NCBI GenBank assembly: GCA_905178155.1
Contig: CAJINV010000001.1
Coordinates: 14,577,119-14,630,124, forward strand
Length of the DNA stretch: 53,006 nucleotides
Direction of reading: 5' to 3'
DNA from: Amoebophrya sp. A120
Lineage: Eukaryota > Protista > Dinoflagellata
Position numbers and translations under genes: made by a program. Within the stretch, counting starts at the first letter, position 1, and the number at the start of each line of letters is the position of its first letter. Positions 1,912 to 29,254 of the stretch are shown piece after piece. The notes below the pieces were generated by a model. It had not been told where the DNA came from. It did not search any database and worked only from the letters and a program-made list of their open reading frames with translations.

Positions 1912-2561
1912 GAAACTGCCGATGTCAGTCGTACTGTCAATAAGCTAGCTTTGGCGTGCCAATAGCTAACGTAAATACGAGGCAAATACGTGTCGAGTCA
2001 GTCCTGTCCGACAATCGGAGTCATCATAAGTCAATCGCTGTGGTCAGGTTTACCTGCACTACCGCGACATAGGGCGGCGCGGGTGGGTCATTTTTGAAAA
2101 ACGGTTCACCACTGTTTGTCGTGCACCATTGGCACTTCGGGAGAAGGCGTTCATAGCTAGCTAAAAACCTCGCTCGTCAGAGGGCGGTGCCGCGAGAACA
2201 AAGATCACCGCACTCCCGGACAAACCGGAAGTGGACTGCCCCGAAATCATTCGCAGATGATTTCCTCATTTCCATCGTGCTCGGTCGACGTTCAAAGATA
2301 GATCAACGGAACAAAAAGAGCAACTGCTAGCTAGTTCAATAGCTAGCACGCCTGCTTTGGCTAGTTCACTTTCATCTTGGTCATTTCTGAGATCCGTCTC
2401 CGATTTCATTTCTATTCTAGGTACTCGGGATACTTCGAATAATAAAGAAAGAAGAAAACCGAAACGATGAAGACAGTTGCTGCTAAGGACACCCCCCAGC
2501 GCTTGGGTGTCGGTATCTCTGTCCTGGCCATGAGCGGCTGGCCGCACAAAAAGAAAGAAGC

Positions 2562-5143
2562 GCAGTTAGAAACCTCGGGGCGGTGGCGGCCGCTAGTTTC
2601 CAGCTAATTTGTGCGGGATTTTTTCAAACCCCGACAATCGGGATAATAGTTGAAGGCCCAAACCCGAAAAGGCGACAACCCAAGTTGCCGCGCGCGAGGT
2701 CCCAAAACAAGCACGAGAGGGGCTTCAGGACAAGAAAAAGAAAACAACGAGAAGCAGGCCGCCTCCTACACATGGAGCATGGCAACGCCGGCAATCTCAC
2801 ACAGGACGAATTCCCACAAAACAAAACCCCAAATCCCAAAACCGCCCGAGAAGCAAAAGAACCCGTCGAACACTCCACCCAGTTGCACCCATACGAAACA
2901 CCCCCCGCGGGCGGCTATTTTCGCTGCTAATTCTGCGGCTAATTTTGTTTCTATTTTTGGGCTATATTTTCGTTACTAATTTTGCTTCTATTTTCGTACT
3001 CTAAATCATGTTCTATTTTCGTACTCTAAGTCATGTTCTATTTTTGGGCTCTAAGTCGTATTCTATTTTGGCTTCTAAATCGTGCTTCTATTTTGCTTTC
3101 TATTTTTAGCGGGATTCGCATGTTCGAGCGGCTGCTTTTCAACTTCTAAATTCGCGCTTTGGAGGATTTCCTTTGGAAATCTCCAGCGTCACGAAAAATA
3201 GAAGTTGGGAAGACAGCGGCCGAACACGCGAATCCCGCAGAAAAATAGAAAGCAAAACAGCGAGCACGTTTAGAAGTCCAAAATAGAATACGACTCAGAG
3301 CCCAAAAGTAGAACGCTTTCGAAAAGCCCAGCGAGAATGGCTTTGCGAAAGAACGAGACAGGGATAGGGTGCAGGGATTTCAATCAACTCAGATGGAGGG
3401 CGTGGGGCGACTTCGCCCGCTAAATTTTGGCTAATTTTTTCGGGATTTTTAAAAAGTCCGGGCAAACAAAGGCGACCGCGGTGGCGTTGCCGCCGAAGGA
3501 AAAGAGTAAGCCCGCGCGGCGTGGGCAAAAGAAAACAAAACCCCAGCGGAGTTTGCGACGGCTATTTTGCGGCGGCCCGGACGGAGCGCGCACAGAACGA
3601 GACGACACCCCATGGCGCATGGGGGATAGACATGGAAACGAAATGCCCGAAGGCGGAAGCCCTTGAACCCAAGAAGGACAGACCCAAACGGAAGCCGGCG
3701 CCGGCGGAAATGTGTTTGGCCCCCGGAAATCAGTGGGCCACCATCCCATGCGCGAATGGTTATTATATTTCCCCACCACATTTCCACCACCCCAAACGAT
3801 TTAGCCTTCCGCGCTTTTTGCTAAATTGGCAGTTTAGCAAAAAGCGCGGAAAATCCTTTCTAATTTGGCCCGCTAAATTGTGTGCTAAATCGGCCGGCTA
3901 AATCCTATTCTAAAACCTATTCTATTTTTTGTTATAAATCGCATGGCTAAATCATGCACTAAATTGCCCTTCTAATTCTTGTTCTAAACTTTGCGGGATT
4001 CACACTCCTTTCATCTTCGCCTCGAACGGCTAAATTCGCGAGTACAGTGATTTCGGGAAGGAAGTCACAAACTTGCAGATTTAGCCGCCGACTTCGAAGA
4101 TGAAAAAGTGTGAATCCCGCGGCTTTGGAAACATGGAAGTCCTCTGGACTTCTATATTTCCAAAGCCACATTTAGAACAAGAATCCTGCGACGAAGGTCG
4201 ACGTCATCAGAAAGACAAACACAACACAGCGCGGAGCGCGATGCAGAACAATTATAAGGAGAGGCAACCCCCAGGGCTTGGCCGAGATAGTGACAGACAC
4301 CATCTCGAGCCTGTTGCGCCTGAGATAATGCCTTCCCCTGCAACACACATGACCACGCTGCCGGATATTTTGCGTGGTGCAAAATATCCGGAAAACCAGC
4401 GTCGGAAGACATGTCGAAATTGGCCGTCTCCACATTTCTATGGAAAACCGGGCCAATTTTTAAATTTTAAAACTTGGCGCGCGGCCAAACACAAAACACA
4501 AGGTAGGAGCAGGCACCGCGGCCGCATTGTACCAGTGGCCCACAGACACGAACAAACCCCATGGGGCCGATAAGGCGGAGACGAACCAGACAGGGGGGAG
4601 CGATAAGACACGAACCTGGGCGGCGGCACACGGGCCAAGCCAGAGAGGTGCCCGGGCCTTGGGGCCTCGGGGAAATCCCGGAAAATTTAGCCAGTTTTTA
4701 GCCCACGAACTGGCCCCACCGTCCTCCACCTGAATCAACATTGGCCACACGGCCCAGGTCTTCACAACCCAAGCCGAAAATCCGAGGGCCCCCATGAAAA
4801 TCAGACCACAAGCGCTGCCCTCCACCTTCGGGGCCACCCGGGTACGAAAATACCAAAGAAGCCCCCAGGGCGTTCGAAATTCCGAATCCCCTGCAAGCGG
4901 CCCTAATTTTTAAATTTTAACTCCCGTCGTGGCTTTTCATGGAAAAACACACGCGGGGCCAACGGGGGGACTTGACAAAAACCCGGCCCCCCGGGCGCGG
5001 TGGAAAAGGGCGGAACCCTGCGGGCCCGGGAAACTTCAGCGCCCGGGGACGAAAAGCGCCGCCCGCCCTAAGGGCTCCGGGGAAATCCCGCAAAAATTAG
5101 CTGGGATGTAGTGCCTCCCGCGGCCCGCGGGCTCTCTGACTGA
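2562..5143. mobile_element. Non-autonomous TIR element, TCAGTCAGA family (~1.23 kb plus nested insert)
   Basis: Ends gcagttagaaacctcggggc / gcgggctctctgactga. Near-identical to 32795-34021. Left flank AGAAGC, but right flank TCCTGG does not match. Confidence 0.85.
3389..4733. mobile_element. Non-autonomous TIR element (1345 bp), TSD ATCAAC, nested in the previous element
   Basis: ~60-bp imperfect TIR tcagatggagggcgtggggc / gccccaccgtcctccacctga. ATCAAC at 3383-3388 and 4734-4739. Absent from the sister copy near 33615. Confidence 0.92.
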
Positions 5144-5839
5144 TCCTGGCCGTAAGCGGCTGGCCGCACAAAAAGGAAGAAGCCGAAACCATGAAGGCAG
5201 TTGCTTTGAAGGACACCCCCCAGCGCCTGGGTGCGTATCTCTGTCCTGAGGGAGCGTAAGCGGCTAGGCGCACAAAAAGAAAGAAGAAAACCGAAAAAAA
5301 CCACGTAGGCCGTTGCTGCTAAGGACACCCCCCAGCGCTTGGGTATCTCTGTCCTGGCCATAAGCGGCCGGCCACACAAAAAGAAAGAAGCCGAAACCAT
5401 GAAGACCGCTGCTGCCAAGGACACCCCCCAGCGCCTGGGTGTCTCTGTCCTAAGCATGAGCGGCTGGGCACACAAAAAGAAAGAAGAAAACCGAAACCAT
5501 GAAGACAGTTGCTGCCAAGGACACCCCCCAGCGCTTGGGTATCTCTGTCCTGGCCATAAGCGGCGGGCCACACAAAAAGAAAGAAGGAAGCCGAAACCAT
5601 GAAGGCAGTTGCTTTTAAGGACACCCCCCAGCGCCTGGGTGTCTCTGTCCTAAGCATAAGCGGCCGGGCACACAAAAAGAAAGAAGAAAACCGAAACCAT
5701 GGCGACAGTTGCTGCTAAGGACACCCCCCCGCGCTTGGGTATTTATGTCCTGGCCATAAGCGGCCGGCCGCACAAAAAGAAAGAAGCCGAAACCATGAAG
5801 GCAGTTGCTTTGAAGGACACCCCCCAGCGCCTGGGTATC
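5144..5839. repeat. ~100-bp satellite array, truncated at N
   Basis: Repeated aaccatgaagacagttgctgctaaggacaccccccagcgc(c/t)tgggt..ctctgtcct units. Confidence 0.95.
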
Positions 5840-5840
5840 N

Positions 5841-5935
5841 TCTCGGAGAGGCAGAAACGACAAAGACAGCCGCAAGCGATCGGCGCAGACCGAAAGTCGC
5901 TAGCGGAGAGAGATCATCGCGCAAAATTCCACCAA
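5841..5935. repeat. 95-bp direct repeat B, copy 2
   Basis: Identical to 1817-1911. Confidence 0.85.
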
Positions 5936-6020
5936 ATGCAGAACAGCCCACACCTCCGCTGAGCATCGTACACGAGCGCAGACAATGGCGCAAAAGTGGC
6001 AGGAAAATGCGACCCAAATT

Positions 6021-7003
6021 TCACTCCTCTTTTGCGTTTTCAAAAACCGTCACGGTCACTTTGCTCCAACAAGCAAAACATCTAGCAGCGAAAGACTCTA
6101 TCATAGGCAAATAACGACTCCAGTCGCCTCCTGCAAGGCCACAGCCAATCAGGTGCGGGAATCCGATGGCTAAGTAGGCATCCTTTTCGGGAAACTTGTC
6201 TTGCAGTTTCGTGAATAGATCGTCTAGACCCTCGCGGAACCATTGTTCCCGTAGGGCGGGCGACTCCGCGTTCCCTTTCTGTACAGTCGGCACCTTGCCG
6301 GGTTTATACTGGCCATACACGTTGGCTACAAATCTACTCGACTTGGGCGCCACTTTCCGCAAGTCTGTCTTACCTACTTCTCTTTTGTGAAATGCATTGC
6401 ACGTGTCCGCCGGCGCGAACTTTCTAAATATGGCTTTTGCGAAGCCAGCTGGCTTGTTAGTCAAGCAGTTGCACTGGTGCGCCAGCGCGTTGATGTGGTT
6501 AGCTTCTAGTAAATCTGCTTTCACTAGTAAGATTTTTTTGGCTTCCGCCTCCAATGGCGGTTTCTTCTTTCTTTTTGGTTTTTCCAAAATCGCCTTTGAA
6601 GCGTCGCCAAGCTCCTGGCTGGGGAGTTTCAAACTTTCCGCGTCTACAGTTGATAGTAGATAGTATGCGTTGTCCGTTTTGGGAAGGGTTTCCCAATAGG
6701 ACCCCCTGCAAGTTTCGAACAGCTCGCGGCTCTTCTGAAACTTTGCTACTTGGAAAAATTTCGCGTACAAAAAAGCGAGCCTGGATTTATACTTAGGCAC
6801 TAGCATGATAGCTCTCGGCCGCCGCTCCAATTTTAGCTTCATGTAAGGCGCGAGCTTTTCCAGCACCGGATAAACTTGGTCGTTGGACGGGTGCCACCAA
6901 GACACTTCCGCGCGCAACTCCTCATCCGTCATCTGGTAGGCATCTGTCACATCTGTCCGAAAATAATCAACCAACTTGCTGACTCCCCTTCTGTCCGCCA
7001 TAG
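6021..7003 (-). CDS. pol: 3' part of YR-retroelement pol: rest of the Dam-like MTase domain + Poa1p/TARG1/DarG-type macrodomain
   Basis: In-frame continuation of ...TPTVDAM into ADRRGVSKLVDYFRTDVTDAY..WWHPS..VLEKL..RAIMLVP. Macrodomain motifs ADLLEA, AHQCNC, AGFAKAI, VANVYGQY and FPHLIGCGLAGGDW. Confidence 0.85.
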
Positions 7004-8298
7004 TCAAGTGGTCCCATTTCCCAAGATCAAAATTTTCAAAAAAAGCATATTTATTTTTTCGATCCTTCAGCGCAGCGCGTCCTCGCACCCCAGAAACGCC
7101 GTCTCGTCGCGGGCCTGAACAGGAAGAGAAGTCGGCGGCGGCCACGATAGAGTGCCTCCCGCCTCCGATGAGCCGCGGACGAAGTGCGGCGACACGCTCG
7201 TGCGGAATGTCCTGGAGAAACAGCGAGATGTGCGTCCCCAGTCCGGAAGGCAACGTCGTCTGCGAAAATGCGCGCCGCCTGGTGCGTGGATGGATCGGCT
7301 CCGTCGGGTCTATCTGTGTTCCAGCCATATCCACCACGGCTCTGCTCGACATATGAGACCCTCTCCTCCCGCTCTGGCCGATTTGCTTTCTCTTTATTTG
7401 ATATACACATGTGGAGCGAACGCAAACAAACGAACAACCCCGCGGCGCATGGCAGGTCTTCCCCTGTGGTTCTACGTGTTTATTTTTTTGAAGGAATCAG
7501 AAAAGAGTAGATCGCGAAAAGTTCCCGTCTAGTTAGGGTGAGGAGTTCTCTTGCTTTTCTAAATTAGCTTTAAACTGTTTGCTTCGGTGGTTCTACGCTG
7601 TGGCCACCTGGTAGCTGCCTTGTCGCTGCATGCTGCAGCTTTCTTGGTAACACCGCTGCCAGATCCTACATTATATCTACTTGCCGGCACTTTTTCGTGG
7701 CGACTGGTCGTTCTCATCAGGGGCTTTCTAATTTCTAAACAAAGATTAGTTCAAGTGCTGGCGTGACTTCCAGCGGCAAATGGGGAAGGCGCTGGCCATC
7801 CTGTAGACCAGACGGAATCTGTGTTTCCAGCCTATACACACAGCGGGAAAAGGTGAAAGGTAGTTTCTAGCTCAAACGACTGCGCAAGAGGGTGCGTCGA
7901 CTAGTTGCATGAGTGCAACAGACCGATGCCACGCAAGGCATCACGTGGGGAAAACTTCAAGCAAATAGAGCTGGCTCGACATTTCTAAATCACGAAAGAG
8001 CAAGAGGCAGGAATCTTACTCAACTTCAATACTTATCTCATTGCTGGATTGCCGGTAAGCCTTTTTTTCACTTTCTAACTGATCAGAGTAGGGCGCTGAA
8101 AATAGCAGTTCTCGCGCTCTGTGATGAGCCGACCTCCAGAAACCGAGGTCACAAAGTTGCAAAATCAAAACAATGTCGCTAGTTCATTTCCCAAAACAAG
8201 ACGTCGTCATTATTTTTTTTTCAATTTCAGGGCTCGCCAATAGAAAGTAAATATATCTCTAGCTACTGTATCTAAACCGAATTTTACTGCGCTGGCAC

Positions 8299-9208
8299 TT
8301 ACGAACCGATCTTCTTCCCCATTTTGTGTTTGTTCTTGATCTCCGCAAGTTTGGACTGCCACAGCGACTGATCCTTACCCGACGGAGACTTGCCGACGTT
8401 GCCACCGGAAGAGGAAGAGGAAGAGGACTGGTTGTCATGCCGCTGCTGCGCCACCACGGCCATCTTCTGCACCTTATTGTCGAAGTTCTGCTTCCGCTTT
8501 TTCGCCGCCGGCATCATCGCCTTATCCTCGTCCTTTTCCTTCTTGGTGCGGGTGGTTTTGGCCTTTTTGGTCTCAACCTTCTGGTCCCGTTTTTTCTGCT
8601 CCAGCGCACTGGAGATGTTGTTCGCCAGCGCCGTCATCTCGACCTGCGTCGCGGCGGACAGATACTTCTTCGCCCTTTCGCGGTATTCGTCGATCTTCTG
8701 GATTTTGAGGTCCATCTCCGCCTCCGTCAGGTTGTTGATTTCGTCAGAGTTCAACTTCAACATCTTTTTCAGCTCCTGGTACGCGTGACCGTCGTCCGCC
8801 AAGATGCTCGTCCCCATCACCCTGTCCAGTCCGATCTTGTACACCAGGTCCGGCATATGGATGGAAAAAGCGGCGACAAGCCCAAGCCTTATCATGGTTT
8901 TCAGCCACATAGGAGGGCCAATGTGGGCACAGTCGAACATTACAAACATGGACTTGCCGCCGCTTTTGCAATCAATATGTCGGCAACAGCTGCGCATACT
9001 GCGCCGCCTCAAGCGCCTCCTTGCACTTCAAGTCTTCCTCGCTGAACCGCATGTACACGATGCAGCGCGCAGCCTTACGGTAGTCCGCAGTGTCCTTCTT
9101 GAACAGCTTCATCGCGGCTGCGAGGTTGTTGGCCGTCCTCTCCTCGCTGTTTTGTGTTTGAGTTGAATTGTTTCCAAGGGCTGTGGCCTGCCTTCTAGAC
9201 GAAGGCAT
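8299..9208 (-). CDS. Transposon cargo gene, unknown helical/basic protein, probably two exons (8972-9208 and 8299-~9012)
   Basis: Two overlapping minus-strand ORFs with coding-like composition; no recognisable domain. Confidence 0.55.
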
Positions 9209-9556
9209 GTCGCTACCAGGCGTCTGTCGGTGTTGGGAACGAAACTACACAAGAGCTAGATCACCGGCCCCCTTTTGCCAGAACACGTCCTAAAATGCCA
9301 GTCTTTGCCTCTTCCCTAAAAGGATCGCCGATAAAACTTTGCGAAGGGGCAAGCACACACTGCAAAATTGTCAAAAGTGATTTTTAGGTGCGGACAAGGC
9401 GTGCTGTATAACAACGACAGAAAGGAGGAAACTTTCGCCGTTTCCTCTCCTCTGCTGCATCAGAAAATTTGCACACCCATGGGGACCAGGCGAGACGTAT
9501 GACAAAAACGGGCCATCTTTCGAACTAAAAGCAAACCTCTATGGACCGCGGCCCCA

Positions 9557-10414
9557 TTACCCAAATCTTAGCGATAAAAAATACCTTCTGTAGATGGCGT
9601 ATTGGTTCCGGGAATTGATTCGCAGGACGCAGCTCACCGTCTCCTGAATCGCCTGGACCGCTTCCACAGCACACTTTTCCAGCAACTGCAGAACGTTCGT
9701 CTTCAATTTCGGAAACGGGCACCGGGCCTGGGGTAACTTCTGGATGTCCTCCTTCGCGGACAAGATGCTGCCCGGGTCGTCGGCGTCGAACTTGATGCTC
9801 AGATCGTTCAAGAGGTAGCTGGGCCAGCTGGTGAAGCCGGTGAGGGTGATGCCGCGGTCCTGCAAAATACCCGCGATGGCCACCTGCGAGATCTGCAGGT
9901 CGGTGAACTTGTTCCACTCCTTGGTTTGGGCGATCGCCTCGAGCACGATCTGGTAGGAGTCACGCTGCTCCAATTTGACCAACTCGAGGATTTCCCGCGC
10001 AGCCTCGATCAACCCCTCCTCGATGCAATCCAGAATTTCGAACTTGGCAGCGGACCCGTCCACCTCGGCGACGGCGCGCTGCATCGGCTTGTTCCCCTGA
10101 CTCAACCACGCCGGCGGCTCCGTTTTCGGTGGACGAAAAGACGGCGAGTTGAAATCCAGCCAGGTTAACCAGGAGAGGTACTCGAAAACACGCAAGATCT
10201 GCGTCTGTTCCGTGAACACCTCCACACTCCACTTTTTCGCGAACATGCTCTGCAACAAGAGCACCCCAGTCTCCTGGAAGATTTCGAAGCGGAAAAGCGG
10301 GACGATGTCCTCAATCCCGAGGTCTTTCACCTGCTTGAGCATTGCGTGCTCGCAGTTACTATGAATTGCAAAAATATCGCGCCTGTAGTATTGCAATACA
10401 AATTTTCTCAGCAT
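9557..10414 (-). CDS. Transposon cargo ORF, unknown (possibly the 3' exon of the 10461-11567 gene)
   Basis: 285-aa ORF of globular composition; TACAG acceptor-like site near 10383. Confidence 0.6.
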   Translation of the reverse strand: MLRKFVLQYYRRDIFAIHSNCEHAMLKQVKDLGIEDIVPLFRFEIFQETGVLLLQSMFAKKWSVEVFTEQTQILRVFEYLSWLTWLDFNSPSFRPPKTEPPAWLSQGNKPMQRAVAEVDGSAAKFEILDCIEEGLIEAAREILELVKLEQRDSYQIVLEAIAQTKEWNKFTDLQISQVAIAGILQDRGITLTGFTSWPSYLLNDLSIKFDADDPGSILSAKEDIQKLPQARCPFPKLKTNVLQLLEKCAVEAVQAIQETVSCVLRINSRNQYAIYRRYFLSLRFG

Positions 10415-10460
10415 TAAGAATGCAATTTGTCATGCTGAATTGCTTTGCAGATGAGATCTG

Positions 10461-11567
10461 TCATGCATACTTGCGAATACTACAAGCGAAATACTTTTGC
10501 ACATGATAGTTACGCATCTGCTGCAATTCTTCCTCCTCCCAAATGTACAGAGTGTCCAGCTCCGGGACGACGTACTGGTACTTTGTCGGCTGGCGCGAGA
10601 AGGTGTCGTTGGAATTGTCGGCCACAAAACTGCTTCCCATCGTGGCACTCCCAGAAGACGGGGCCACCGGATGCAGCCCTTCCGAACCAAAGTAAGCGAT
10701 AGAAGAAGACGCCACGCCGGCATTGGGAATCTCCTTGCTCTTCGAGTCCGCTTCCACCGATCGTTCGCCCTGCGAGGGCAGGTCCTCATCTGCGTACTTG
10801 TTGAAACTGGTATTGTCCAGGAGCTGACTATCCTCGGCGTCCTCCGCGTCTTCCCCCTTGCCGGAATCCATCTGCAACGCCGAGGTGAGAAAGTTGTCCG
10901 CCGGCGACGTCGCTTCACCGGAAGTTGCCCCAGCTCCTTCACCGGTGGTTTCTTCAGCGGCAGATTCCACAGCTTCTTTTCCTTCGGCCTCCTTCTTACT
11001 CCCAGTCACTTCGCGCACACCATGCAGGGCAACTGGATCGCGATTCGGATTGTAGCCGAACAAACTGCTCTTCGCGCCGGTGGCGGAGGACCCAATGGAC
11101 GATCCCGCTCCGGGGAGAGAAAACGCAGCGGAGCCACCGCGGGGGTTCTGGCGGTACTGCGCCATCGACCGGCCGGAGTTGTTTGTAGTAGTTTTGGGCG
11201 CGATTTGTTCGTACGTGGTGTTCAACTTCTTGAGAAACTGGGCAACCGGCAAAACCGGAATCTTCTTGTCTTTCTTTTCGTTAAACTTTTTCATCAGCTC
11301 CCTGTCAAACGTCATGTTGCCGTCTGCGTCCGCTTTGAACGTGCGCATGATCTCGTAGTCGACGCTTCCACACTGTTTCTTCGAGCCCCGGACCTTTTTG
11401 TACACGTCCAGGTTGTTCGTGGTCGCGGAGAAGTTGTTACGCCGCAACGCCTCCAGGATCTTGGGGTCCGTCATAGCAGCGCGCTCCTTGCGCTGCTTAT
11501 CCGCGGCGGCCTTGTCACCCATCTCTTTCGAGACGGCCTGCTCGATGATATTATCACCGATGACCAT
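10461..11567 (-). CDS. Transposon cargo ORF, unknown, low-complexity acidic/Ser-rich C-terminal half
   Basis: 368-aa ATG-initiated ORF. Confidence 0.65.
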   Translation of the reverse strand: MVIGDNIIEQAVSKEMGDKAAADKQRKERAAMTDPKILEALRRNNFSATTNNLDVYKKVRGSKKQCGSVDYEIMRTFKADADGNMTFDRELMKKFNEKKDKKIPVLPVAQFLKKLNTTYEQIAPKTTTNNSGRSMAQYRQNPRGGSAAFSLPGAGSSIGSSATGAKSSLFGYNPNRDPVALHGVREVTGSKKEAEGKEAVESAAEETTGEGAGATSGEATSPADNFLTSALQMDSGKGEDAEDAEDSQLLDNTSFNKYADEDLPSQGERSVEADSKSKEIPNAGVASSSIAYFGSEGLHPVAPSSGSATMGSSFVADNSNDTFSRQPTKYQYVVPELDTLYIWEEEELQQMRNYHVQKYFACSIRKYA

Positions 11568-12571
11568 CTTACAGCGGGCTGCTGGGGTTCAAGCTAATGC
11601 AAAACCGCTCCTGAAAATGCAAAAAATAGCTGGGGTTCTACTCTTTTCACGTTTCCTGAGATGCTGCCTTCTGAAAAATCTGTGGTCGTGAGCACTCCTG
11701 AGGAAATAACTATACGAAAGAAATGACGCTGGAAGCTGCAACCCGACATCACGAAGCGGGGCTGGGGAGCGGGCGCGCGGGCTCTCAAACTGCTGGCCGG
11801 CAAACTCGAGCACCGGATGAGCCCGACCAGGGGGCCAGGCCATTCAGAGAAAAAAGCGGGCCAACATTTCGGGGCCGGACAAAAAATTCCGCCGCGCCAG
11901 AAAAGCCTCCGCGCAGCGAGGCTTTTCGGCGCTGGGCAAAAAAATTTTTAAATTTTCCGCCGCCGGATCTGAAAATTTTGGAAAAATTTCTGCAATAAAA
12001 AATCCAAAATTTTTAAAATTTAGGGGCGGGATTTTCAAAAAAAATCGCCCGCCCGGCGGGACAGGCGATTTTCAATAGGATTTCCTTGCTGCGCCGCCGG
12101 GGCGCGCTTTTTTTTGTTTTTTTTCGCGCCGGATCCGCCGCAAAAAAAATTAAAAAAACGGGAAAAAAAAAGTGGAAATCGCTCGGGCCAGCGCTATTTT
12201 TAAAAAATTTTGAAAATTTTTCGCGTCCTGCTATACTTTTTTTTTTGCTCCCCGAGCCCCCGCAAACGGCAGCAAGCGCGCGCGTCTTGGCTTTTGTAAA
12301 AATGCTCTGCAGGCGATTTGGCGAGTTTGAATGTGATTCGCTTTCTTCCATTTTTCGATCTCTCACTGCGCTTTCAGCTCTCGCGAGGTCGAACTCAGAA
12401 CAAACGAGGACCGAAGAATGCGGCGCAAACAAGCTAGAGCGAAAAAAGACCGTGACTACACCTAGAATTTCGACGGACTGAGAGACTGCGCATTTACTTT
12501 CCTTCGATAGCCACTCGATTTGTCTTCGTGTTCAAAACATTGAAAAAGCTCTGCGAAAGCTCGAACCACTA

Positions 12572-15500
12572 CTATTGCGCACTAGCTGCTTCAGTTATCA
12601 TGCTAATGAGCGGTGCAAAAATTTCACTTTTTACTGCGATCGCAGTTCGTTGCTGAATTTGCACAGCGGTGAGCCTTTTGCCTTTTCCCGCCGCCTGTGC
12701 CAGCTCCTCCGCATCCGGATCCTCTGTTGCAACACGCAGATACTCCGTCGCGTCAAAAGTTGCGGCCTCCAGCTGCTCCTCCACCTCCCCAGCCGCCTGG
12801 AGTTCGATCGGAATCGCGCCGCGCTCCAACGTTGCCACGGCAAAGGCACAGGCTGCGGCCCAGACCCGGCCGAGGCAGGCGCAGACGGCCCGCCCACCAA
12901 ATTTGTTTATGTCGAACTGCTTCGACAAATGCAGCCCGTGCTTCCGATGCAGCTCCGCGGGGCCGAAGGTTATCACGCGGTCGAACAGAATGCCGTCCTT
13001 CGGCATCCAGGCCCGGTGGCCCGGTTGCCCCTCCCGGGTATTCGCTCGCAACCAAAGCCCGCCGCCCAGTCTGGTATGGTATCCCTCGACACTAATGGAC
13101 GAAAGGGCCGGAACCTCGTCCAACTGTTCGCGGGCAGACAACAGCTGCGCCGCTAGGTTTTCCGCGTTCTCGTTGTAGTTATCGTCCCCTCTGTGGCGCA
13201 GGCTACGGTGCTGCTGCGCAGAAGAGCTTGCGGCCGAGCCCTCCGCATAGCCCGCCGGATGCGCGCCACCGCTGTTCTGGCACCGGGACTGTGCGGCACG
13301 TCCACTCTCCCGGCGGTGCCAGATGTCTGCTGCGCGGTTGTGCAACGTCGGGTCCGTCAAAAACTGCTCCAACTCGCGCTCTCGCATTGCGCGCGCGAAC
13401 TGCAGCCCCGCAATCTCTTCATCATCATCAAACTCATCCCCGGTGTCCGTGTCTCCTCCATCGTCGCCAGATTCAGATTCTTCGGCCTGCAGAAATTCGT
13501 CGACCATTTGCAACAATGGCTTCCCCTCAAGCCAGTCGAAGACGAATGTGCAGGAGGAAACGTCAAACGAAAGCGGGGCATACCAACACTGCGCCGACTC
13601 TTCAAAATTTTCCTCCATCACCGCGGCGAGGTTCGTCAGGCTACATTCTTCCACAGGTGGTAGAGCCACGTGAAATTTGTAATCCCCACTGGAGATTGCT
13701 GGCTTCGGCGTCATCTTCAGCAGACCGACGGTGCGCTGATGACCTTCTGCGGGGGAAAGGACGAAAACCGTCTTCACCAGCGGCTTCGCGCGTCTGCGCA
13801 AGTTCGACTCAATGCCGGCCAGGCTGCTCTCGTCATCGTCCTCGGGGTCCAGGCCGAACACAACTGCACCTAGTCGACCGCTTTCGCAGGTATCTTCAGC
13901 TTCCAGAACGCACCTCTCGACCTCGTCGGCTGTCAATGCTGCGGGAAACTCGTAGGAGGAGTACGCCTGCTGAACGGTGGTCCCGAGCCACGAACCGGGG
14001 GCCGTACAAGAAGTCGTCCGGTCGCGCTCAATATCGGCCCGACTTTGCTGCCAATAATCGCGAATTTTTTCGAGGGGCACGGGAAGATCCAGCGAAGAGC
14101 TGCTACTCCGGCCTGGCGGACCGGCCGAAATTGCTGCTGCGGGAGGTCGCGCACCGGAGGTTTGTGCAATACTAGAAGACGACGACGCGGCGCTGTCGCC
14201 CCCGGTCTTGGCCTTACCCTGCCACACCCAAGCTCCAGAAGCGTCACGGACTAATGTCCCGGACTGCTCTTCTTCCACTTCCGGGTCGGAGCCCTGGGGT
14301 TTCTGCCCTTTCGCCTTCGCCGCATTTGCTGCATCGCTTTCCAGCTTCAGCCGCTTCCGGTCCGGCTCATACCGTGCTTTCTCCTCCTCGCTCACGAGGT
14401 TGTTGTCCCAGCGCCAAGCGGCGGCCGCGAATGTCTCCTTCGCCTGGATTTGTTTCGCCGCCCCATACTCGGCCCCAAGCGCGTCGGGATTCTGTATCAT
14501 GATCTCTTTGTTCTCCTTCGCGATTTGCTCCCCGATATATTTCGACCTTGCTGAGCATTTTTGCTTTTGGACTTTTTTCGCGGCCCTTGCTGCGCGGACC
14601 GCTGCGCTGGCGTGCTGCGCGAGAAGCTCGCTCGAGAACTGCGGAGTAATTACTTCCTGCGAAAGCCCCTCCACTGTTCTTCTCTTCGTGTGCAGCCCCA
14701 CTTTTCTCGATGAGATGGCGTGCTGGCTCTCTTCCAAGCGGGTTCCAAGCGTCACCGCCGCATGAACTGTTTTTGCAAGAGCCGCCAGCTGGTGGTCCAG
14801 GAGGTTCTGAACACTGCTCCAGTCGTCGGCAAGGGGCAGCTCGCGAAACACTTGCATGGCCCCTGCCTGATTTTCGTCGTCCACAATGTCGAGCAGCGGG
14901 AGCAATATTCCGTCCACATCCACTGCGAGCAGACGCTTCTCTTGGCGCATTGCCGCCCGAACCAGCGACCCCGCCACCGCAGGAATGTCTTCGATTTTCC
15001 CCGACAAGTACCCGAGTAATTTCAGCAGTTCATGCACCTCACCCCATGCCAAGCTCAACAACTGCTTGATCCGCGCCCGTAGTGTCTCCTGCGGAAGAAG
15101 GGTTTCGCGACGGAGGCTCTCGGCCATGATGACATCCGCCGGCCGGGAGAGGAGCGCCACCCACAGCATCGTCTCGTCCACTATTTTGGGCCATTGTTGT
15201 CGAACGGATTTTCGAAAACCGTCGTCGCTCCGTGCAACCAAGCATCTACCACCCAGTGCGCCGAACAGAAGAAGCAAAGCGCAACAGCGCCCCGACATCC
15301 ACTGCAAAGGCACCGCAGTAATTACAGTCATGCATGACAAATCTTGCTTCTTTGGTAAAGCCGCATGACAAGCTTCATCTTTCCGGCTGAGAAAAATTTG
15401 CAATGCGTATAGCGATACTGCGGTGCTGTTGCAATGCATACCGAGGGTAAGCCAGCGGCTTTCGGTGCCCACTTGTATCCTCACCAGCACATGCTTGAGG

Positions 15501-16165
15501 GTCTGCACTGCTTCCTCGACCGAACCTGCGACGACTTTCATCTGCTGAAAATCGAACCGGACCTCCGACGAAACGCCCGCGCCTCCTGCTGCTGTCTTCT
15601 TCTGGTTGGGCCCGCGTTCACCAACCAGGCGGAAAAGCACCGCCGTCTCATCCATTACCGCCATCGAGGCGGACAACCCGGGGCCGCCGGGTAAGCCAAT
15701 GGACCCGGACGGTGGCGCCAGCAATTCTTCCACCCATTGCTGCAAATCTTCTAGCAGATCACATCGATGATAAATCAACTTTCTCGAAAAAACGTAGAGC
15801 TGATGGGCCCACTCTTTTGTTTCTTCATGGTTCCCGAGCACCACGCGGACCTCGTCGAGGAGACCTAGTTGGCAAAAATGGTGCATGCAGTACTGCGTTA
15901 GGCTGGCGGTGCAGGATGAACGCCTTTCATTCGTCAAAGAAGACCAAACCCGGAGGATTTTTCTGATTTTCCGCCCCGCGCCCCCACTGTCCTGAACGTT
16001 GTAGACAACTAGCGGCCGGCGGCTGCCAGGCTTGCAGATGATCTTCTCCAGCTCCTCCAAAGCGTTCTGTATGCGCGGCCAGATGTCGCCAGCTGCTTTC
16101 GCGGTCAGCAACACGAGGTCCACCGGCACCCGGATCGCGTTGTACAGGCCTCCGCTTCTCACCAC
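12572..16165 (-). CDS. Putative DDE transposase, hAT-like/CxxH clade, main exon
   Basis: 1197-aa ORF inside a TIR/TSD element. Ordered motifs VYNVQDSG (second D), YCMHHFCQL (CxxH), TESRWLT (cf. hAT TRWNS) and TRLEESQHAIS (catalytic-E-like). Confidence 0.7.
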   Translation of the reverse strand: MVRSGGLYNAIRVPVDLVLLTAKAAGDIWPRIQNALEELEKIICKPGSRRPLVVYNVQDSGGAGRKIRKILRVWSSLTNERRSSCTASLTQYCMHHFCQLGLLDEVRVVLGNHEETKEWAHQLYVFSRKLIYHRCDLLEDLQQWVEELLAPPSGSIGLPGGPGLSASMAVMDETAVLFRLVGERGPNQKKTAAGGAGVSSEVRFDFQQMKVVAGSVEEAVQTLKHVLVRIQVGTESRWLTLGMHCNSTAVSLYALQIFLSRKDEACHAALPKKQDLSCMTVITAVPLQWMSGRCCALLLLFGALGGRCLVARSDDGFRKSVRQQWPKIVDETMLWVALLSRPADVIMAESLRRETLLPQETLRARIKQLLSLAWGEVHELLKLLGYLSGKIEDIPAVAGSLVRAAMRQEKRLLAVDVDGILLPLLDIVDDENQAGAMQVFRELPLADDWSSVQNLLDHQLAALAKTVHAAVTLGTRLEESQHAISSRKVGLHTKRRTVEGLSQEVITPQFSSELLAQHASAAVRAARAAKKVQKQKCSARSKYIGEQIAKENKEIMIQNPDALGAEYGAAKQIQAKETFAAAAWRWDNNLVSEEEKARYEPDRKRLKLESDAANAAKAKGQKPQGSDPEVEEEQSGTLVRDASGAWVWQGKAKTGGDSAASSSSSIAQTSGARPPAAAISAGPPGRSSSSSLDLPVPLEKIRDYWQQSRADIERDRTTSCTAPGSWLGTTVQQAYSSYEFPAALTADEVERCVLEAEDTCESGRLGAVVFGLDPEDDDESSLAGIESNLRRRAKPLVKTVFVLSPAEGHQRTVGLLKMTPKPAISSGDYKFHVALPPVEECSLTNLAAVMEENFEESAQCWYAPLSFDVSSCTFVFDWLEGKPLLQMVDEFLQAEESESGDDGGDTDTGDEFDDDEEIAGLQFARAMRERELEQFLTDPTLHNRAADIWHRRESGRAAQSRCQNSGGAHPAGYAEGSAASSSAQQHRSLRHRGDDNYNENAENLAAQLLSAREQLDEVPALSSISVEGYHTRLGGGLWLRANTREGQPGHRAWMPKDGILFDRVITFGPAELHRKHGLHLSKQFDINKFGGRAVCACLGRVWAAACAFAVATLERGAIPIELQAAGEVEEQLEAATFDATEYLRVATEDPDAEELAQAAGKGKRLTAVQIQQRTAIAVKSEIFAPLISMITEAASAQ

Positions 16166-16323
16166 CGCCTTTGCCGTACAAACGTGAAAAAGTATGCATC
16201 TGAAAATAAGCTAGTCCCAGGCAATGGCGATGCAATTGCTACTGCTGTCTTGATCGTGTTTGTCATGCATTTTGTCATGCCAAGTGCCTGCATTTTCATC
16301 ACATGGAACTAGCTTATACTCAC

Positions 16324-16674
16324 CAACATATTCTCGCCGTTCCGCTTTGGCTGCCCCTTAGATGCAGTGGTCCCGGTAGCATTGGAAACCGTGATGCCAA
16401 GTGGCGTCCCATCGTGGCCAATTCGGAGGCAGACAGGTTCGCGCGCATCTGCGTCGCACGCCGCCTGCAGCCTGTCCTTCTGGAACCGCTTCAAATACTC
16501 CACCGCCCGAGCACGAACCCGCATAACAGTCTTCTTCTCCACTGCAAATCCGACAAGGAGCCCAAGCGATTTGGAGAAGGCCTGGTACGGAAGCGAGGCG
16601 CTGAACATTATCGCCCCGATCATGCGACCCTTTACATCGTCAAAGAGCGCCTTCTTCAACGGGTCGCCGTCCAT
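16324..16674 (-). CDS. Upstream exon of the putative transposase (first catalytic Asp)
   Basis: VCLRIGHDGTP strand-Asp motif. Ends at consensus donor GTGAGT (16323); the acceptor is uncertain. Confidence 0.6.
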
Positions 16675-17156
16675 GGTGATCTACAACGGCGCTGCCGGGG
16701 GTGGGTTGGATATGGGGTGCAATGTGCCAGCGCAGTACTCGGGTTCTAGATACACAAACGCTTCTAGCTAACGGAAAAAAATAACTATACTTCTAGCGAG
16801 ATCAACATGGGTTTATCGACAGCTATCATCAATCAGGAAGTTCAGAAACTATGCAACGAGCGAGAGAAAAACAGGGGCGATCGCAACGTCCCTCGTGCTC
16901 ATCTCTAGTCAAGTAATGCGAAGACGAAAAACGAACGAAATCAGAAATCTCCACGAGCAGCTTTGTTCTCACGGGTTTTGATATCGACAGCTCGAAGTAG
17001 TTGCTGTGCCGCAGAGCGTCTGTCAATCCGGGCGTCTCCAACTTCCGACCATTCTTCGGCGACCGTCTACAGCCATCCCACGTCCATCAATGTCCGGCAT
17101 GAAAAAATAATTTTGCTTTTTTTGATTTTTTTGAACTTGGGAATGGGCCCACATAA

Positions 17157-19341
17157 CCATAGCGTCCACAGTGGGCGTCACGCCCAAGCGAGACATAACA
17201 GCAGAAAACACATCAGGCTTCAGCCTTTTGTCTGGATACAAATCCAGCAAGGTTGTGTTTAACTGCAGTCGGGAAATGGCATCGGCAATGATGTTGTGCT
17301 TCCCTCGGACATGTTGTGCTAAGGCGCAGATGCCTAACTTGCTGCACAGCAACTTAATATCCTTGCCTTTTCGTGCTAGCCACTTTTTTCGGCCCGTGCC
17401 GAAGTTCGCGTAGTGCTTAGCTGCTGTGTTATCGGTGCGTAGCAACAGAATTTTATCTGCGTACTTGCTGCCATGCAGCTTCAACCAGTCGCGAAAGGTA
17501 GTCAGTTCCCTTTTGTTACTGTGCCGTCTGTCTATGTATTCGTTAAAATCCCCTTCATACCTCACCGAGTCTCCGTCCACCGTGACTCCCCAATGGAAGC
17601 CACTGGCGTCGGACGTAACGATGCATAGACTGGCCGGGTCTATTTCTTTAAACATTTCCGGCTTGTCCAGTAGCTCTGGGGTCAAAAGAAAGGACTTTCC
17701 TTTCGTGGATGTGTGGATCGGAATGTGCGGATCGCACTCAGGCGCTTCCTGCCACCATTCTAAATCGCTGACCACATCCGCGGAAAGAGGCAGGCTGGGG
17801 CTTGCTTTCTTGTTCCCCTTTGTCCATGCCGAAATCACTCCACTTGCGCCCAGCAAGTCATATGATGATCTCAAAAACGCCCTACCTGCTGCAACCACAA
17901 ATGACACAAAGTTTAACATACCTACGATGGACGCTAGCTCTCTAGCCGGAACTTTTCCATCATCCTTAGACTTCTTCAAAAAATCTGCCAGCACCTGAAT
18001 ATAACGCAACCGCTTTTCAGGATCTATCGAAATGCGCACTGCAGCAGAATCGATAAGAAACCCAATCCGCGCTATCTGCGTGGTAGGATAAGTAAATTTA
18101 TCCAACTTATCGGGTCTAAAGGGATGTAACAGAATCCCCACCCTTTTCCAGATGGTTCGCACGACCATCATGTCGATGTATACACTTTTCAAGTCGGTTG
18201 GTCGCACCAAAGAGCAACCCCTGATATCATCTACATAATCCCGCATGCTAATACGCGGGAACTTTTTTTGGAGTGCGTGAGTTAAACTTTTTATCGCGGA
18301 GTCTGATATTCCGGGGGACGGACTAAGCCCCATCGCGGCAAATAGTATCTCAACAACTTTTTGCGCTTTCGCGTTGTAAAAATTGACTCCCATGAGTCTT
18401 CTAAATTGTGGCGCGATTAACCACAACCAAAAACAATCCTTCACATCCAAGCCCCACATGAGGCACCATCTTACCAAATCGGCCACGAAGTCGAAGATCG
18501 ACTGGCACATCGTGTCAACGCTTTTCAACATGCTGCTGAGACCCACCTTGGTCCAGTCGTTGACATAACGATCGCGATGCTCCCGGCGAATCAGATTCGC
18601 CGGGGCAATCGACAAACCCGGCGGGGCGTCCATCTTATCCCAGATGATCGCCTTTCCGGTTTCGGTGAACCGGTCCAGCTCCTTGGCTGCCGCGTCGAGG
18701 TTTTCCTGTATTGAAGGAAAATCCGGCTCGTCGAACAAAGGCAAGCCCTGCTCCCGGTTGTCGATCATGCGCTGGAGGTCCTCTTCGGATTCAAATTCCA
18801 GCTCAAAACCTCCGAAGAAGTTTGCACGCATCTCGGGCGAGATCCCGACCACCTTGCAGTAGTGCGGGTCGAGTGTCAAAGCGTCCGCCGCTGCTCCGTC
18901 CTCGATTTCCCTGTACTTGTCCGTGGGTCCTGGCTGTGCCGCCAGGTATTGGTAGACCTCCTCCTTGGTCTTGGGGAGTTTCAACCCCTTCACGTAGTCG
19001 TCGTTTTCAAACAACGGATCGGATGTGATTTCTGCGAGCCATTCGTCCACTATCGCTTCCGCCTCGCGGTTCCAGTCCTCGTTTTCGAGGTTGTGCAACG
19101 CATTGCGTCGATCGATTTCCTCTTGGGTCAGCTCGACCCCCATCTTTTTATAATCTCTTTTTGCCACTATGTGTGTGTGTAATCGCGATGGGTCAGGTGT
19201 GCATACCTGTGGCAGCGTACACTGCGCTCTCGCATCCCATGGATCCACGCTCGGCGCTCGGCCACCTCTCTGACAGCGTGCGCACGCTCTACAAGAAGTG
19301 ACTACATCTGTGAAAACAGGTGTCGCTCGTGACAAAAACAT
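17157..19341 (-). CDS. pol: YR-retroelement pol 5' part: reverse transcriptase, RNase H, start of MTase
   Basis: RT motifs LDVKDCFW, MGLSPSP, YVDD and IGFLID. DIRS-type RNase H motifs SDASGFHWG, HSNKREL, RTDN and HVRGKHNIIADAISR. MT start RLKPDVF..LGVTPTVDAM. Confidence 0.95.
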
Positions 19342-19494
19342 AGCTGAACAAGCTGCGCATCCTCGCTTGCGCCAGTCCGCGCTTCATGTGGCTCGAGCAA
19401 CGCCGCTCCCCCGCGTGCGGCCACCTTTGTTCGAAACAACGCTAGATCTGGCATATCATCAAAAAACCAACATCATGTTTGCCAACGTCATGTT

Positions 19495-20092
19495 TTACGC
19501 CTTGCGTGCTTTTTTGTCCAGAAACCTCGTAGCGTCATTAAGCCTTTTGGTGTCGTTGATCAAATCCAGACGACGACTCCACTGCTTGCTAGCTACAAAG
19601 GCCCACTCGGCCCACTTCAAACCAAGAGTCATGTCCTGATCATCATCGGACAGAGTCACCCACAATTCTGTGAGCCTTTCCAGCAAGTCACACCAGCGCA
19701 CTTCTTTGTACGCTGCCACGCAACTCGTGATCATTTTCTCGTGATTATTCTTGCTGTCATTCATGATTTTGACGCACCTCAAGCACTTTTGCACCTCATC
19801 TGCTTTGGCCAGCGTCTCCTGCTGGGCCCGAGCAAATTGCTCGATGCTCATCTGGGCGTAGTGCAGATTCATGGTCTCTGCGCTTGGTCGATCCTTGCTC
19901 TTCCAACCGCCCGCATGCAACGCCATGTGCCTGTCGTACAGTCCGTAAATCCTCGCGCCGGAAGCTCGGAAGCTGATCTTCTGCGGCTCCGGGAGTCTTT
20001 CTTTCCACTTGAAAGAAGATTTGGACAAGTGATCGCGCAAAACGTCACTGAAGTACTTGTTGGCCGCTTCAGGGGATAACATTTTCATCCCG
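19495..20092 (-). CDS. Tyrosine recombinase C-terminal part
   Basis: ISFRASGA (HxxR box, His substituted), AGGWKS and LHYAQ (Tyr nucleophile). Joins in frame as CPSLNG-MKMLSPE. Confidence 0.85.
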
Positions 20093-20856
20093 TCAACGGG
20101 ATCGGACCCCAATGGGCCCGGAAATAAAAAAATCATGAATCCCAAAAGAAAAACGAAAAAAAAAATTTTTGCACTGCCGCCCTATTGTGCCAAACCACTC
20201 CGCCGGGGCTCGCTCGATAGGAAATCTGTAGGCCCTAAAATAACGCCGGGGCTTTGTCAACAGGCTGCGGACCTGTGGGCTCCGGGGTTTTCGAAGAACT
20301 GCGCCACATGAAATCGAGCACGCAACTTTTGTTCGGGCAAACACAACTTCACCGAAAAAACAGAAAGACACCGAATAAATTTGCGCCAAAAAATTGCCTT
20401 CTTTGCGACATGAGTGCGACACGGGTGCGACACCGGTGCGACACGGGTGCGACATTTTTCGGCTTCTTCCTGAAATCCCTAAGAAAAAAAAAACCACGGC
20501 CGAAAGCCGATTTTTTTTAATTATTTCAGATTTTTTGTCGCAACAAAGGCGATTTTTTGTCGCAGAATTAATTGGCCACTCGCCCACCCAAAACTTTCCC
20601 ACCCAGAATCCCTCTCCCATCCCGAAGCACACACCGGCAACATGGGCTCCCTCTGCCGGCCCCACTCCAATCCCTTGCGCCCAGGCCTGCTTTTCCCGCC
20701 CAACCCACAAACCCAAGACACACAACCAGAAAAAGAAAACGCACCAGCGAGCGGCTGCAAGAACTGCGAAAACCCTGCGAAAACTTAAAAGCGCGAAAAT
20801 TTTCCGGCTTTTGTGATTTTTTTGCTTTTCTGACTACTGGGGGCCGATCCCGTTGA
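20093..20856. mobile_element. Non-autonomous TIR element (764 bp), TSD ATCCCG, inside the YR catalytic domain
   Basis: TIR tcaacgggatcgg(a/c)cccca. ATCCCG at 20087-20092 and 20857-20862. Internal 11-bp gtgcgacac(g/c)g tandem near 20410-20455. Confidence 0.92.
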
Positions 20857-21740
20857 ATCCCGTTCAGCGACGGGCACAAGTATTCTTGGTCAACTGCTAT
20901 CAAGTTTTCGCACCGCAACAGCTCATGTGCGCTGACCGCCACTTTCCTGGCGCCGCTACTTTCCTGGAAGTTGAGTCTCACGCTCGGGTCTGGCGACAGT
21001 GTTGCGCTGCCTCTGGGCCACCCCCAGTGCTGCGTCAACACCAGTAGCAGCTCTTCGCTTGCTTTGAACAAAACTTCCGGCGACGGCTGCAACGCCGCTA
21101 CATCTGGTACGGCGATCTGGTGCCCCGCCGCCATCGTGCCGAGCTTGAAGTCCGTTTTTCCCATCGTGATTCTCGCAATGAGCCCTCCGCGATGTATCCT
21201 TACCGACTGCCGTAGCATCCTGCACCCTTCGGACTTCCGCCTTTCGCCTAACACTCCTACTCGCACAAATAGTAGTGTTCGCAATCTGCAATACAGGGCT
21301 TTCATCCTGTTCAGCTTGGTGCCGTCCTTGGTGGTGTAACCCGCCTTCTCCCACTGGTCTTCGGCCTCCTGGTTACCCGGCGGACGAGCCTGACCGCTTG
21401 CCGACACTGCGAAGCGCTGCAGCGGTACCACTTCGCCTCTTGCGTTTGTCAGCCAAAACGCGGGATCAAGCGCCAAAACTTCATTGTTGAACTGCTTGAG
21501 CTCCTCGAAGGTGAGCGCGGGCTTCGGTGTCGGCTGCGGGTGGTGCGACATCTTCTTGATCGCGGCCCACATGTCCATGACATCTGGGTGCTGCTCTATC
21601 AGCCCGAAATCGAACATTTCGACTTTTCTCCGATGAAAATCCCGTAGCGCCGACCTCAGAAGGTTCATCATGTGCCACTTCGTTTTTACTACTCCGTTTA
21701 CTTTGGTGACTCCTCGGAGGCTTTTCTCGTTTTGCAGCGC
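20857..21740 (-). CDS. Tyrosine recombinase middle part
   Basis: LRSALRDFH, KPALTFEEL, LGERRKSE (catalytic R) and GKTD (K). Confidence 0.85.
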
Positions 21741-21765
21741 CTGCGTGTGGAAGAGAGTGACAGAC

Positions 21766-23382: not shown

Positions 23383-23908
23383 ACCAACGTATCAACGTCT
23401 CTCCAAACGCTCGCAACGCCAGCCAACCTCTCACAGTGCGCAGCACCACGGCTCGAACAGACATACGCGCACACTCGCATCTATGCGCGCGAGAATCAAT
23501 GCTCGCAAGTAATCTGATTTTTTGCTTTTTTTCCAAAGCTTTCTCGTGTTTTCTGTGGACCATCCTTGAAAACACCACTTCTAATTTTCAAATTAAAATG
23601 AGTTGATAATCTCGTGTATTTTCAACAAAAATACTCGACGCGCCGCCTAGGAGTTGCAGTCTGCGAGACCTCGACAGCATTCAGACGAATACCTAGCCTC
23701 AATTATCCTAAGTGCGTCAGCATGTCTTTCCGGTCGAAACATAAGATCGCGTGCTCAATGCACGCCTTCAATTCCTTTTGCGGTCGAAAGTTGTGCTTCC
23801 CATGCGTCTTGTCTTACTGGCGAAGTCAACAATCCTGCTTCAAATTTCACTGGAATTGGCATTAATATACTTTATTTTCAAAAAATAAAAATTGACGTCA
23901 TGATCGTA

Positions 23909-27329: not shown

Positions 27330-27437
27330 CTGAGATTGAACATTTTTCAAAATATCACTTCGCTTGCGGTTTGCATCTCATGCCAGCATGCTCTCTGCTG
27401 CTGTAGCTTTGAACTGCCTTGCAAACCACAACTTTAC
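27330..27437 (-). other. Predicted canonical 108-nt GT-AG intron in ORF1
   Basis: CAG|GTAAAGT...AATCTCAG|G removes an in-frame stop and joins LAEAR-HNIHK. Confidence 0.7.
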
Positions 27438-27648
27438 CTGGCCTCCGCCAGCGACATCAACATGGGACGCCAAGTGATGTTATCTTTTTTCTCCTCATCC
27501 ATGGATTCGACTAGTGCGGGGGGGTTCGGCAGGAATTCGCTCCCCTCGATGGATAATCCGACGCGTTTCAGCACATCGTCTATCATCTCCGCATGGACTC
27601 TCCAAAACAACGGACTGAACCAGGAGCGCGTCACGATGTCTGCTTTCG
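27438..27648 (-). CDS. ORF1 exon segment
   Basis: In-frame continuation LPTK-ADIVTRSWFSP after element removal. Confidence 0.7.
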
Positions 27649-29203: not shown

Positions 29204-29254
29204 CCAGATGCATACTTGAACTGCCAGCGCTGCTCAAATTCATCAATCGTATGC

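Follow-up and report, generated by a model that had tools for sequence, protein, structure and literature searches.

A macrodomain fused to the C-terminus of the Pol of a tyrosine-recombinase retrotransposon in Amoebophrya sp. A120

Introduction

RNA viruses and phages are known to use macrodomains as counter-defence enzymes. In Vibrio phage Gary the stand-alone protein Adpp of NARP1-AP (KNV71_gp137), encoded between Adps and Namat, converts ADPR-1''-phosphate to ADPR and defeats aRES, according to the available part of its description, and has a counter-defence role in a mobile element (bioRxiv 10.64898/2026.01.28.702374). A second well described group is the SCO6735/BT1257 subclass of bacterial stand-alone proteins (PDB 5E3B, 2FG1), for which the accessible sections of PMC9411070 report a set of His, Asn, Gln and Gly residues together with a long, basic and mobile loop. 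Mutating these residues in SCO6735 abolished or cut the activity on ADP-ribosylated thymidine, with G128E lowering it; Gln85 is stated to be the equivalent of the catalytic Lys of TARG1 and DarG, and Val/Ile25 to be specific to the subclass (PMC9411070). SCO6735 is further described, in the text available, as selective among nucleic-acid substrates (PMC11833690).

Retroelements are known to capture enzymes of this and other kinds. As far as the sources are accessible, the dinoflagellate element SymbioDIRS-Dnmt3, of the PAT-like, split-direct-repeat type, combines Gag, recombinase and an RT-RH Pol with A...B-A-B-like repeats and carries a DNMT, a captured modifying enzyme, inside its Pol (PMC5890265); macro ORFs occur in fish epsilon-like ERVs (PMC4977317, citing Basta 2009), and NADAR domains in an Ectocarpus Gypsy Pol and in oyster Tx1 ORF1 (PMC12477816). 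The likewise partly accessible reports on tyrosine-recombinase (YR) elements describe A...B-A-B split repeats for PAT, Ngaro and VIPER (PMC6681497; PMC3266345) and call the Dam-like methyltransferase domains of DIRS elements catalytically inactive in one class (PMC3537659). Tyrosine-recombinase retrotransposons have no protease (PMC3783388).

Here we describe a stretch of 53,006 nucleotides (the window, to which all coordinates refer) from Amoebophrya sp. A120, in which the Pol of a tyrosine-recombinase retrotransposon ends in a macrodomain. As in the fish ERVs and the Gypsy and Tx1 elements, a retroelement has captured an ADP-ribose-handling domain, but those belong to other element orders and hold the domain at other positions, and NADAR is another fold. 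A first, sequence-only reading of the window had called such a fusion unfamiliar in DIRS-order elements. Our literature search agrees with it, as we found no published macrodomain in a tyrosine-recombinase element, with Repbase and most subscription literature lying outside the search; no such fusion is reported in the available parts of PMC4695847, PMC3417536 and bioRxiv 10.1101/2021.11.30.470311.

Results

The C-terminal domain is a macrodomain

A minus-strand frame, open from 7496 to its stop codon at 6021-6023, ends in 174 codons that encode a macrodomain of the ALC1/TARG1/Poa1p class (6021-6545, of which 6021-6539 form the annotated domain; residue numbers run from 6545). The motifs AHQCNC (6465-6482), NVYGQ (6309-6323) and IGCGLAGGDW (6120-6149) are all present on this strand. 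Several independent comparisons agree with the earlier proposal of a macrodomain at the C-terminus of Pol. PHROG_335 matches in the PHROGs profile search (E=2.6e-22), the best PDB sequence match is SCO6735 (5E3B, E=1.2e-6), followed by BT1257 (E=0.001), a profile built from 97 homologs retrieves macrodomains only (19 sequences, best E=1.9e-16), and 30 of 30 Atlas neighbours are Macro clusters. The AlphaFold model (pLDDT 93.9) superposes on BT1257, TARG1, DarG, Poa1p and SCO6735 (Z 15.7-17.8), which fill its top 18 rows; over these rows Z is 14.8-17.8, the rmsd 2.2-2.9 and the number of aligned residues 136-151, the best Z of 17.8 being that to BT1257, while viral and MacroD-type macrodomains score lower (Z<=14.4). 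Only Pfam was silent, with 0 families at E<=0.5 and thus no Macro (PF01661) match. Because PF01661 matches just 17 of the 97 homologs, we regard this as a blind spot of the profile; the test for a Macro profile hit therefore failed with Pfam and succeeded with PHROG_335, the PDB and the homolog profile. The phylogenetic clade to which the domain belongs (see below) is largely invisible to Pfam.

The macrodomain is part of Pol, which is split by a 10-kb insert

Further upstream on the minus strand lies an RT/RNase H frame (17023-19383), one base out of phase with the macrodomain frame. The two are separated by an inserted terminal-inverted-repeat (TIR) element at 7004-17156, which holds several minus-strand ORFs and splits an adenine-methyltransferase-like (MT) domain. 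It is bounded by the 6-bp target duplication CCATAG (6998-7003 and 17157-17162), and its inverted ends are imperfect, with 12 of 16 positions matching. Excising 10,159 bases (mod 3 = 1) corresponds exactly to the frame offset between the two ORFs. The resulting Pol frame begins with the Met at 19143, is 987 aa long, has its one stop at the end and keeps the RT and RNase H motifs. The upstream part (17157-19143, minus) comprises RT, with DVKD at 18436-18447 and YVDD at 18226-18237, RNase H (17269-17616) with its catalytic acidic residues present, and the start of the MT domain; its C-terminal part (6642-7003, minus) with a WHPS motif is followed by a linker (6540-6641), in which the basic run KPKRKKK (6555-6581) is partly kept in the homolog P0002. 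The linker is the least conserved part (36%).

P0002 (CAD7939283, Amoebophrya sp. A120) is an uninterrupted RNase H-MT-macro protein, 48% identical to the window Pol, and reads TPTVDAM-R straight across the insert junction. Identity is 70% upstream of the junction and 46-54% downstream, the two fused macrodomains being 46% identical. The domain order RT-RNase H-MTase-macro in one frame, seen before only by removing the insert, is thus confirmed by the 987 codons and by P0002, which is also the second copy that the earlier reading called for. In principle two unrelated ORFs or an assembly error could mimic a fusion, and no read or contig across the empty site was seen. The exact 6-bp duplication, the frame match, a contig that holds MT and macrodomain without any difference to the window (5906-7032) and the uninterrupted homolog make such an artefact so improbable as to be negligible, and P0002 alone refutes it. 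The RT-RNase H-MT-macro fusion is real and limited to one subfamily. In a DNA-like run the contigs fork precisely at 7003, and the left 1.1 kb of the insert (7003-8092) has a second copy with other flanks and twice the depth in run X1. The same 1.1 kb is also found in contigs of the presumed-RNA runs X7 and X8; the X8 contig has loose ends with 7 letters in common, as a self-closing contig or a direct repeat would have.

The host element is a tyrosine-recombinase retrotransposon

The element is arranged on the minus strand in the order Gag-like ORF1, tyrosine recombinase, Pol. The family profile of Pol matches the RT/RNase H 'enzymatic polyprotein' 8R0S (E=3.3e-6) and many RTs, and Pfam RVT_1 on Pol is weak (E=0.04-0.05). 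Active adenine methyltransferases carry a D/N-P-P-Y/F motif; as WHPS replaces it, the MT domain of the window is likely inactive or altered. A model of the MT domain of the homolog P0114 (pLDDT 71.7) gave adenine-MTase-fold chains in its top 18 rows at a modest Z of 5.0-6.2, with a best Foldseek E of 0.027.

The recombinase ORF (19495-23391, minus) shows R (21228-21248), K (21150-21161), xSFR (19954-19977), W (GGW, 19897-19911) and Y (HY, 19852-19866) motifs in order, and the His of HxxR is not kept. Pfam gave no match on its pieces; Atlas features reach 0.93-0.97, with Phage_integrase and NDC10_II clusters as leads. The ordered motifs and the Atlas features bear out the tyrosine-recombinase context proposed earlier. 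This ORF has a frameshift near 21760-21812 and a 770-bp TIR insert at 20093-20856 with the duplication ATCCCG. ORF1 (23909-27346, minus) has a Cys-rich N-terminal region and a Cys/His knuckle-like C-terminus, matches no profile, and is interrupted by a 1233-bp TIR insert at 25208-26434 (duplication TGTTCC) that leaves the two parts in frame. Its N-terminus (26399-27346) also includes a PHD-like stretch, again with no profile match, and a further ORF upstream (27450-29233) reads through an insert at 27649-28719. With three insertions in its ORFs and the frameshift in the recombinase, the window copy is dead.

Candidate repeats are ordered A1 ... B1-A2-B2, all on the minus strand. B1 (5841-5935) lies 85 bp past the macrodomain stop and is 100% identical over 95 bp to B2 (1817-1911); assembly gaps cut both. 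The A repeats are very large: A2 (2147-5839) contains a 100-bp tandem array and a MITE-like insert shared with A1 (32384-36830), which lies upstream of the ORFs and has an uncertain 5' limit. Unique parts of A2 are 98-99% identical to 32384-34021, and 235 bp between A2 and B2 fit neither repeat. Tandem arrays of ~100 bp occur at 5136-5839, 33980-36830 and 39093-39420; the MITE-like insert common to both A copies is palindromic and 1.2 kb long, and A2 alone holds another insert of 1351 bp. None of 17 inverted repeats bounds the element in the manner of DIRS1-like terminal repeats, the element ends being gapped. The MT-like domain and the partly resolved split repeats point to a probably PAT-like element. 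It differs from SymbioDIRS-Dnmt3 in what was captured: here a macrodomain comes behind the Dam-like MT domain, which has been retained. Beyond a 100-N gap, 817-1716 appears by eye to be the C-terminal fragment of a Copia-like RT/RNase H; the 95-bp repeat was considered as its LTR, which was dropped as no copy follows that ORF.

The 10-kb insert belongs to a family of TIR elements

Three further inserts, one each in the recombinase ORF and ORF1 and one upstream (27649-28719), have TCA...TGA-like ends and a 6-bp duplication, and removing those in the recombinase ORF and in ORF1 likewise restores the frame. Among the nine repeat pairs scanned, four have a 6-bp duplication together with matching ends and five do not. 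The 10-kb insert seems to belong to the same family as a long version. It carries a 1212-aa ORF (12572-16210, minus), probably joined to 16322-16680 by a GT-AG intron, in which we see a D...CxxH-like pattern that we presume to be that of hAT/Mutator-type transposases. No match to this candidate transposase was found in Pfam, the PDB, PHROGs or NCBIfam. Because Amoebophrya is reported, in the accessible part of PMC7789003, to be nearly without transposases, the product is a candidate mobiliser of IR/DR elements. The introners described there have inverted repeats of 8-20 nt and direct repeats of 3-5 nt; with its 6-bp duplication and length of 10 kb the insert is a loose fit to them at best, and the recombinase frameshift kills the copy anyway. 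Within the insert, 10385-10447 and 15319-15384 are short, introner-sized pieces of opposite orientation with depths in the thousands. A ~1-kb element at 37503-38493, with 59-bp near-perfect inverted ends starting TAT/ATAT, represents a family distinct from the TCA...TGA inserts. From three raw RNA runs, probably of another strain, 3, 1 and 198 reads map to the window, none on the macrodomain or RT, and three presumed-RNA contig sets show nothing on 5850-7002 or RT. Neither the reads nor the contigs reveal a transcript or a joint across the insert, and both are uninformative on expression and on splicing of the insert as an introner.

Most relatives lack the macrodomain

A search with MT-macro against 1.84 billion representatives yielded 1786 matches. 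Among the best 150, one covers MT and macrodomain (P0002), 3 cover the MT domain only and 146 the macrodomain only, so that the known copies with the fusion are two. Two full-length Pols retrieved with RT as the query and three partial ones stop 16-43 residues after the MT domain, one of the macro-less relatives, P0114, coming from a 736-bp contig and possibly being cut. The macrodomain is therefore present in one of six relatives that reach the end of the MT domain, four of the six being labelled Amoebophrya. As five other relatives are without it, the domain was gained by one subfamily, and the family at large can do without it. Word-indexed searches for longer fused proteins, which are weak, gave 1 and 5 matches, none of them a Pol. 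Scans of metagenome and viral contigs based on the MT-macro alignment produced 157 and 59 candidates, of which none was confirmed.

The macrodomains of the window and P0002 have the same residue at 33 of 47 family-conserved columns and at 46 of 126 others (Fisher p=1.3e-4), and the macrodomain frame is open in both copies. From this preferential retention and the open frames we infer that the fused macrodomain has been kept by selection. It would have joined Pol after the subfamily split from its macro-less relatives. These data also bear on the possibility that a host or viral macro gene was caught at the 3' end by read-through and has no function, as the existence of just two copies among the best 150 of 1786 matches, the lack of the domain in most relatives and possible decay in P0002 might suggest. 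In P0002 the Gly136-Leu137 loop reads Cys-Arg, the only Cys at this place among 327 domains, and its RNase H has Asp in place of Glu. Such a passenger is nevertheless quite improbable given an open frame, conserved sites preferentially kept over ~50% protein divergence and a fold predicted at pLDDT 94.

Phylogeny and possible donors

For the trees the 327 domains were filtered for redundancy and picked down to 210 and 54; the bootstrap of the 54-row tree had not settled. The element macrodomains form one clade (support 98/90) and sit within a 43-row clade (100/99), separate from the SCO6735-like and Adpp rows. Its sequences are environmental, giant-virus-like, or from phages and protists, and none of them is an assayed protein. 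A stand-alone gene of the same clade in Amoebophrya A25 (P0174), which would suit a functionless capture from the host, can be grouped with the element domains (p-AU 0.31), and a tree joining the element domain to Adpp is not rejected either (p-AU 0.062). The AU tests thus reject neither a phage nor a host source.

The macrodomain is matched by 581 phage records, the best including Vibrio phages Ceto and Gary, in both of which Adps and Namat stand on either side of the macro gene. Of 80 viral loci, 18 have NARP1 genes next to them, against none of 80 bacterial loci. The top viral loci encode poly(A) polymerase, kinases, helicases, or PARP plus NADAR; among 7 loci scanned, viral neighbours include PARP plus NADAR (L002) and an ADP-ribosylglycohydrolase (L006). 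The top predicted viral structure match is a Marseillevirus UDG fusion. NADAR fusions of homologs are P0001 and P0146; fusions of the clade (P0001, P0146, P0035, P0048, P0172, P0173) involve NADAR (in Hartaetosiga), RNase H, uracil-DNA glycosylase or RTC-family domains. P0091 (ENA, 752 aa) has a same-clade macrodomain C-terminal to tyrosine-recombinase-like motifs, seen by eye without profile support; a YR element may here have captured the domain independently, and a search for the context of P0091 found nothing (0 of 158). P0076, P0063 and P0163 (ENA/Logan) combine a Gag-like part, a CCHC knuckle, a protease-like stretch, a same-clade macrodomain and a SET domain. They likely represent another retroelement with macro and SET, the element part being recognised by visible motifs with no profile match.

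Active site and likely chemistry

H23, N26, Q79 and G136 of the window domain, which we annotate together with G134, align to H24, N27, Q85 and G128 of SCO6735. Gln79, conserved in 308 of 327 homologous domains, thus stands where TARG1 and DarG have the catalytic Lys84 and Lys80. P0002 keeps the H, N and Q of this set and has Cys at the Gly136 position. With TARG1/OARD1, DarG and Poa1p the window domain shares the fold class (Z 16.5-17.2) at 18-24% identity, and the DarG model NF048014 of NCBIfam gives it 14.7 bits against a cut-off of 250. The earlier assignment to a TARG1/DarG/Poa1p-like group therefore stands for the fold and, as to TARG1 and DarG, falls for the active site. The SCO6735/BT1257 subclass supplies the best PDB sequence and structural matches, and, in contrast to it, the window lacks Val25 and Lys34 (Gln24 and Ala33 instead), falls in another clade and is fused to Pol. 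By identity the nearest assayed homolog is Adpp of phage Gary (34%, E=8e-17), with identical core motifs AHQCNC, NVYGQY and LIGCGLAGGDW. Since Adpp is a small-molecule phosphatase, de-ADP-ribosylation, as put forward before, is only one of two documented chemistries, that of SCO6735.

A phosphatase of the Adpp/Poa1p type would act on free ADP-ribose-1''-phosphate as a metabolic helper, clearing a by-product of tRNA splicing or what an NAD-phosphorolysis defence produces, and would erase no marks. The identity and motifs shared with Adpp, the common PHROG_335 family (80.6 bits for the window domain, 170.6 for Adpp), Poa1p as top Foldseek match and the unrejected Adpp grouping all fit it. We consider this rather unlikely, as the best tree places a 100/99 branch between the element domain and Adpp, NARP1 genes are absent from the top loci of the nearer clade (L001-L012), the element is without NAD-rebuilding genes, with no Adps or Namat among the window ORFs scanned, and a diffusible substrate would presumably need no tether to Pol.

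Unlikely, too, is a reader that would bind ADP-ribosylated chromatin or DNA breaks and steer Pol, cDNA or integration like C-terminal chromodomains. Its C-terminal position behind a basic linker would suit such a domain, as would the absence of the TARG1/DarG lysine and the loop changes tolerated in P0002, and reader fusions are common in transposons (bioRxiv 10.1101/2021.11.30.470311, in the part available). Both copies, however, retain the H, N and Q that belong to the catalytic set of SCO6735, and the domain is fused to Pol and not to the integrating recombinase, although P0091 exists as a possible recombinase-macro fusion.

The reading that we prefer, and to which we give just short of an even chance, is that of a Pol-tethered ADP-ribose hydrolase clearing marks from the cDNA or RNA of the element or from its proteins. 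As DIRS-order elements have no protease (PMC3783388), the macrodomain would stay on Pol, at the replication complex. There it would bind ADP-ribose and cleave at 1'' by the Gln-dependent, water-mediated route proposed for SCO6735; the long loop with Lys that follows Gln79 would be suited to nucleic acid as substrate. The least certain step would be a host defence as the source of these marks. Other retroelements carrying ADP-ribose-processing domains speak for such an eraser, as far as PMC4977317 and PMC12477816 are accessible, and so do the restored Pol frame with its uninterrupted homolog, the preferential retention of conserved sites, the residues shared with the SCO6735 set and the PARP, NADAR and ADP-ribosylglycohydrolase partners or neighbours of homologs. 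Against it are the placement in a clade with no assayed member, apart from SCO6735-like and Adpp rows, the activity shown for Adpp, which dephosphorylates the free compound and was not shown to de-modify macromolecules, the missing Val25 and Lys34, the Cys-Arg in the phosphate-binding loop of P0002 and the rarity of the domain, absent from five of six relatives and known from two copies among the best 150 of 1786 matches.

Discussion

A counter-defence role of the Pol macrodomain, as first proposed, is plausible at most, given that five of six relatives do without the domain and that the phosphate-binding loop of P0002 is changed. A wider proposal, which we hold to be doubtful, is that the host ADP-ribosylates or NAD-poisons retroelement intermediates, in a eukaryotic immunity resembling DarT or aRES, and that a virus-type clade of erasers shared with giant viruses would have been captured repeatedly by unrelated retroelements. 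Since the capture of ADP-ribose-handling domains by retroelements has been published, the surprise is limited; what is new, as far as the literature searched goes, is that a tyrosine-recombinase element carries a macrodomain. With its 174 residues the domain is intact, and it represents a large clade from giant viruses, phages and protists that lies between SCO6735 and Adpp. A selected macrodomain on a DIRS-order Pol would extend the ADP-ribose arms race to a further order of retroelements and to a protist without interferon, and the fusion suggests that a nucleic-acid or NAD-based pathway against retroelements may be worth seeking there.
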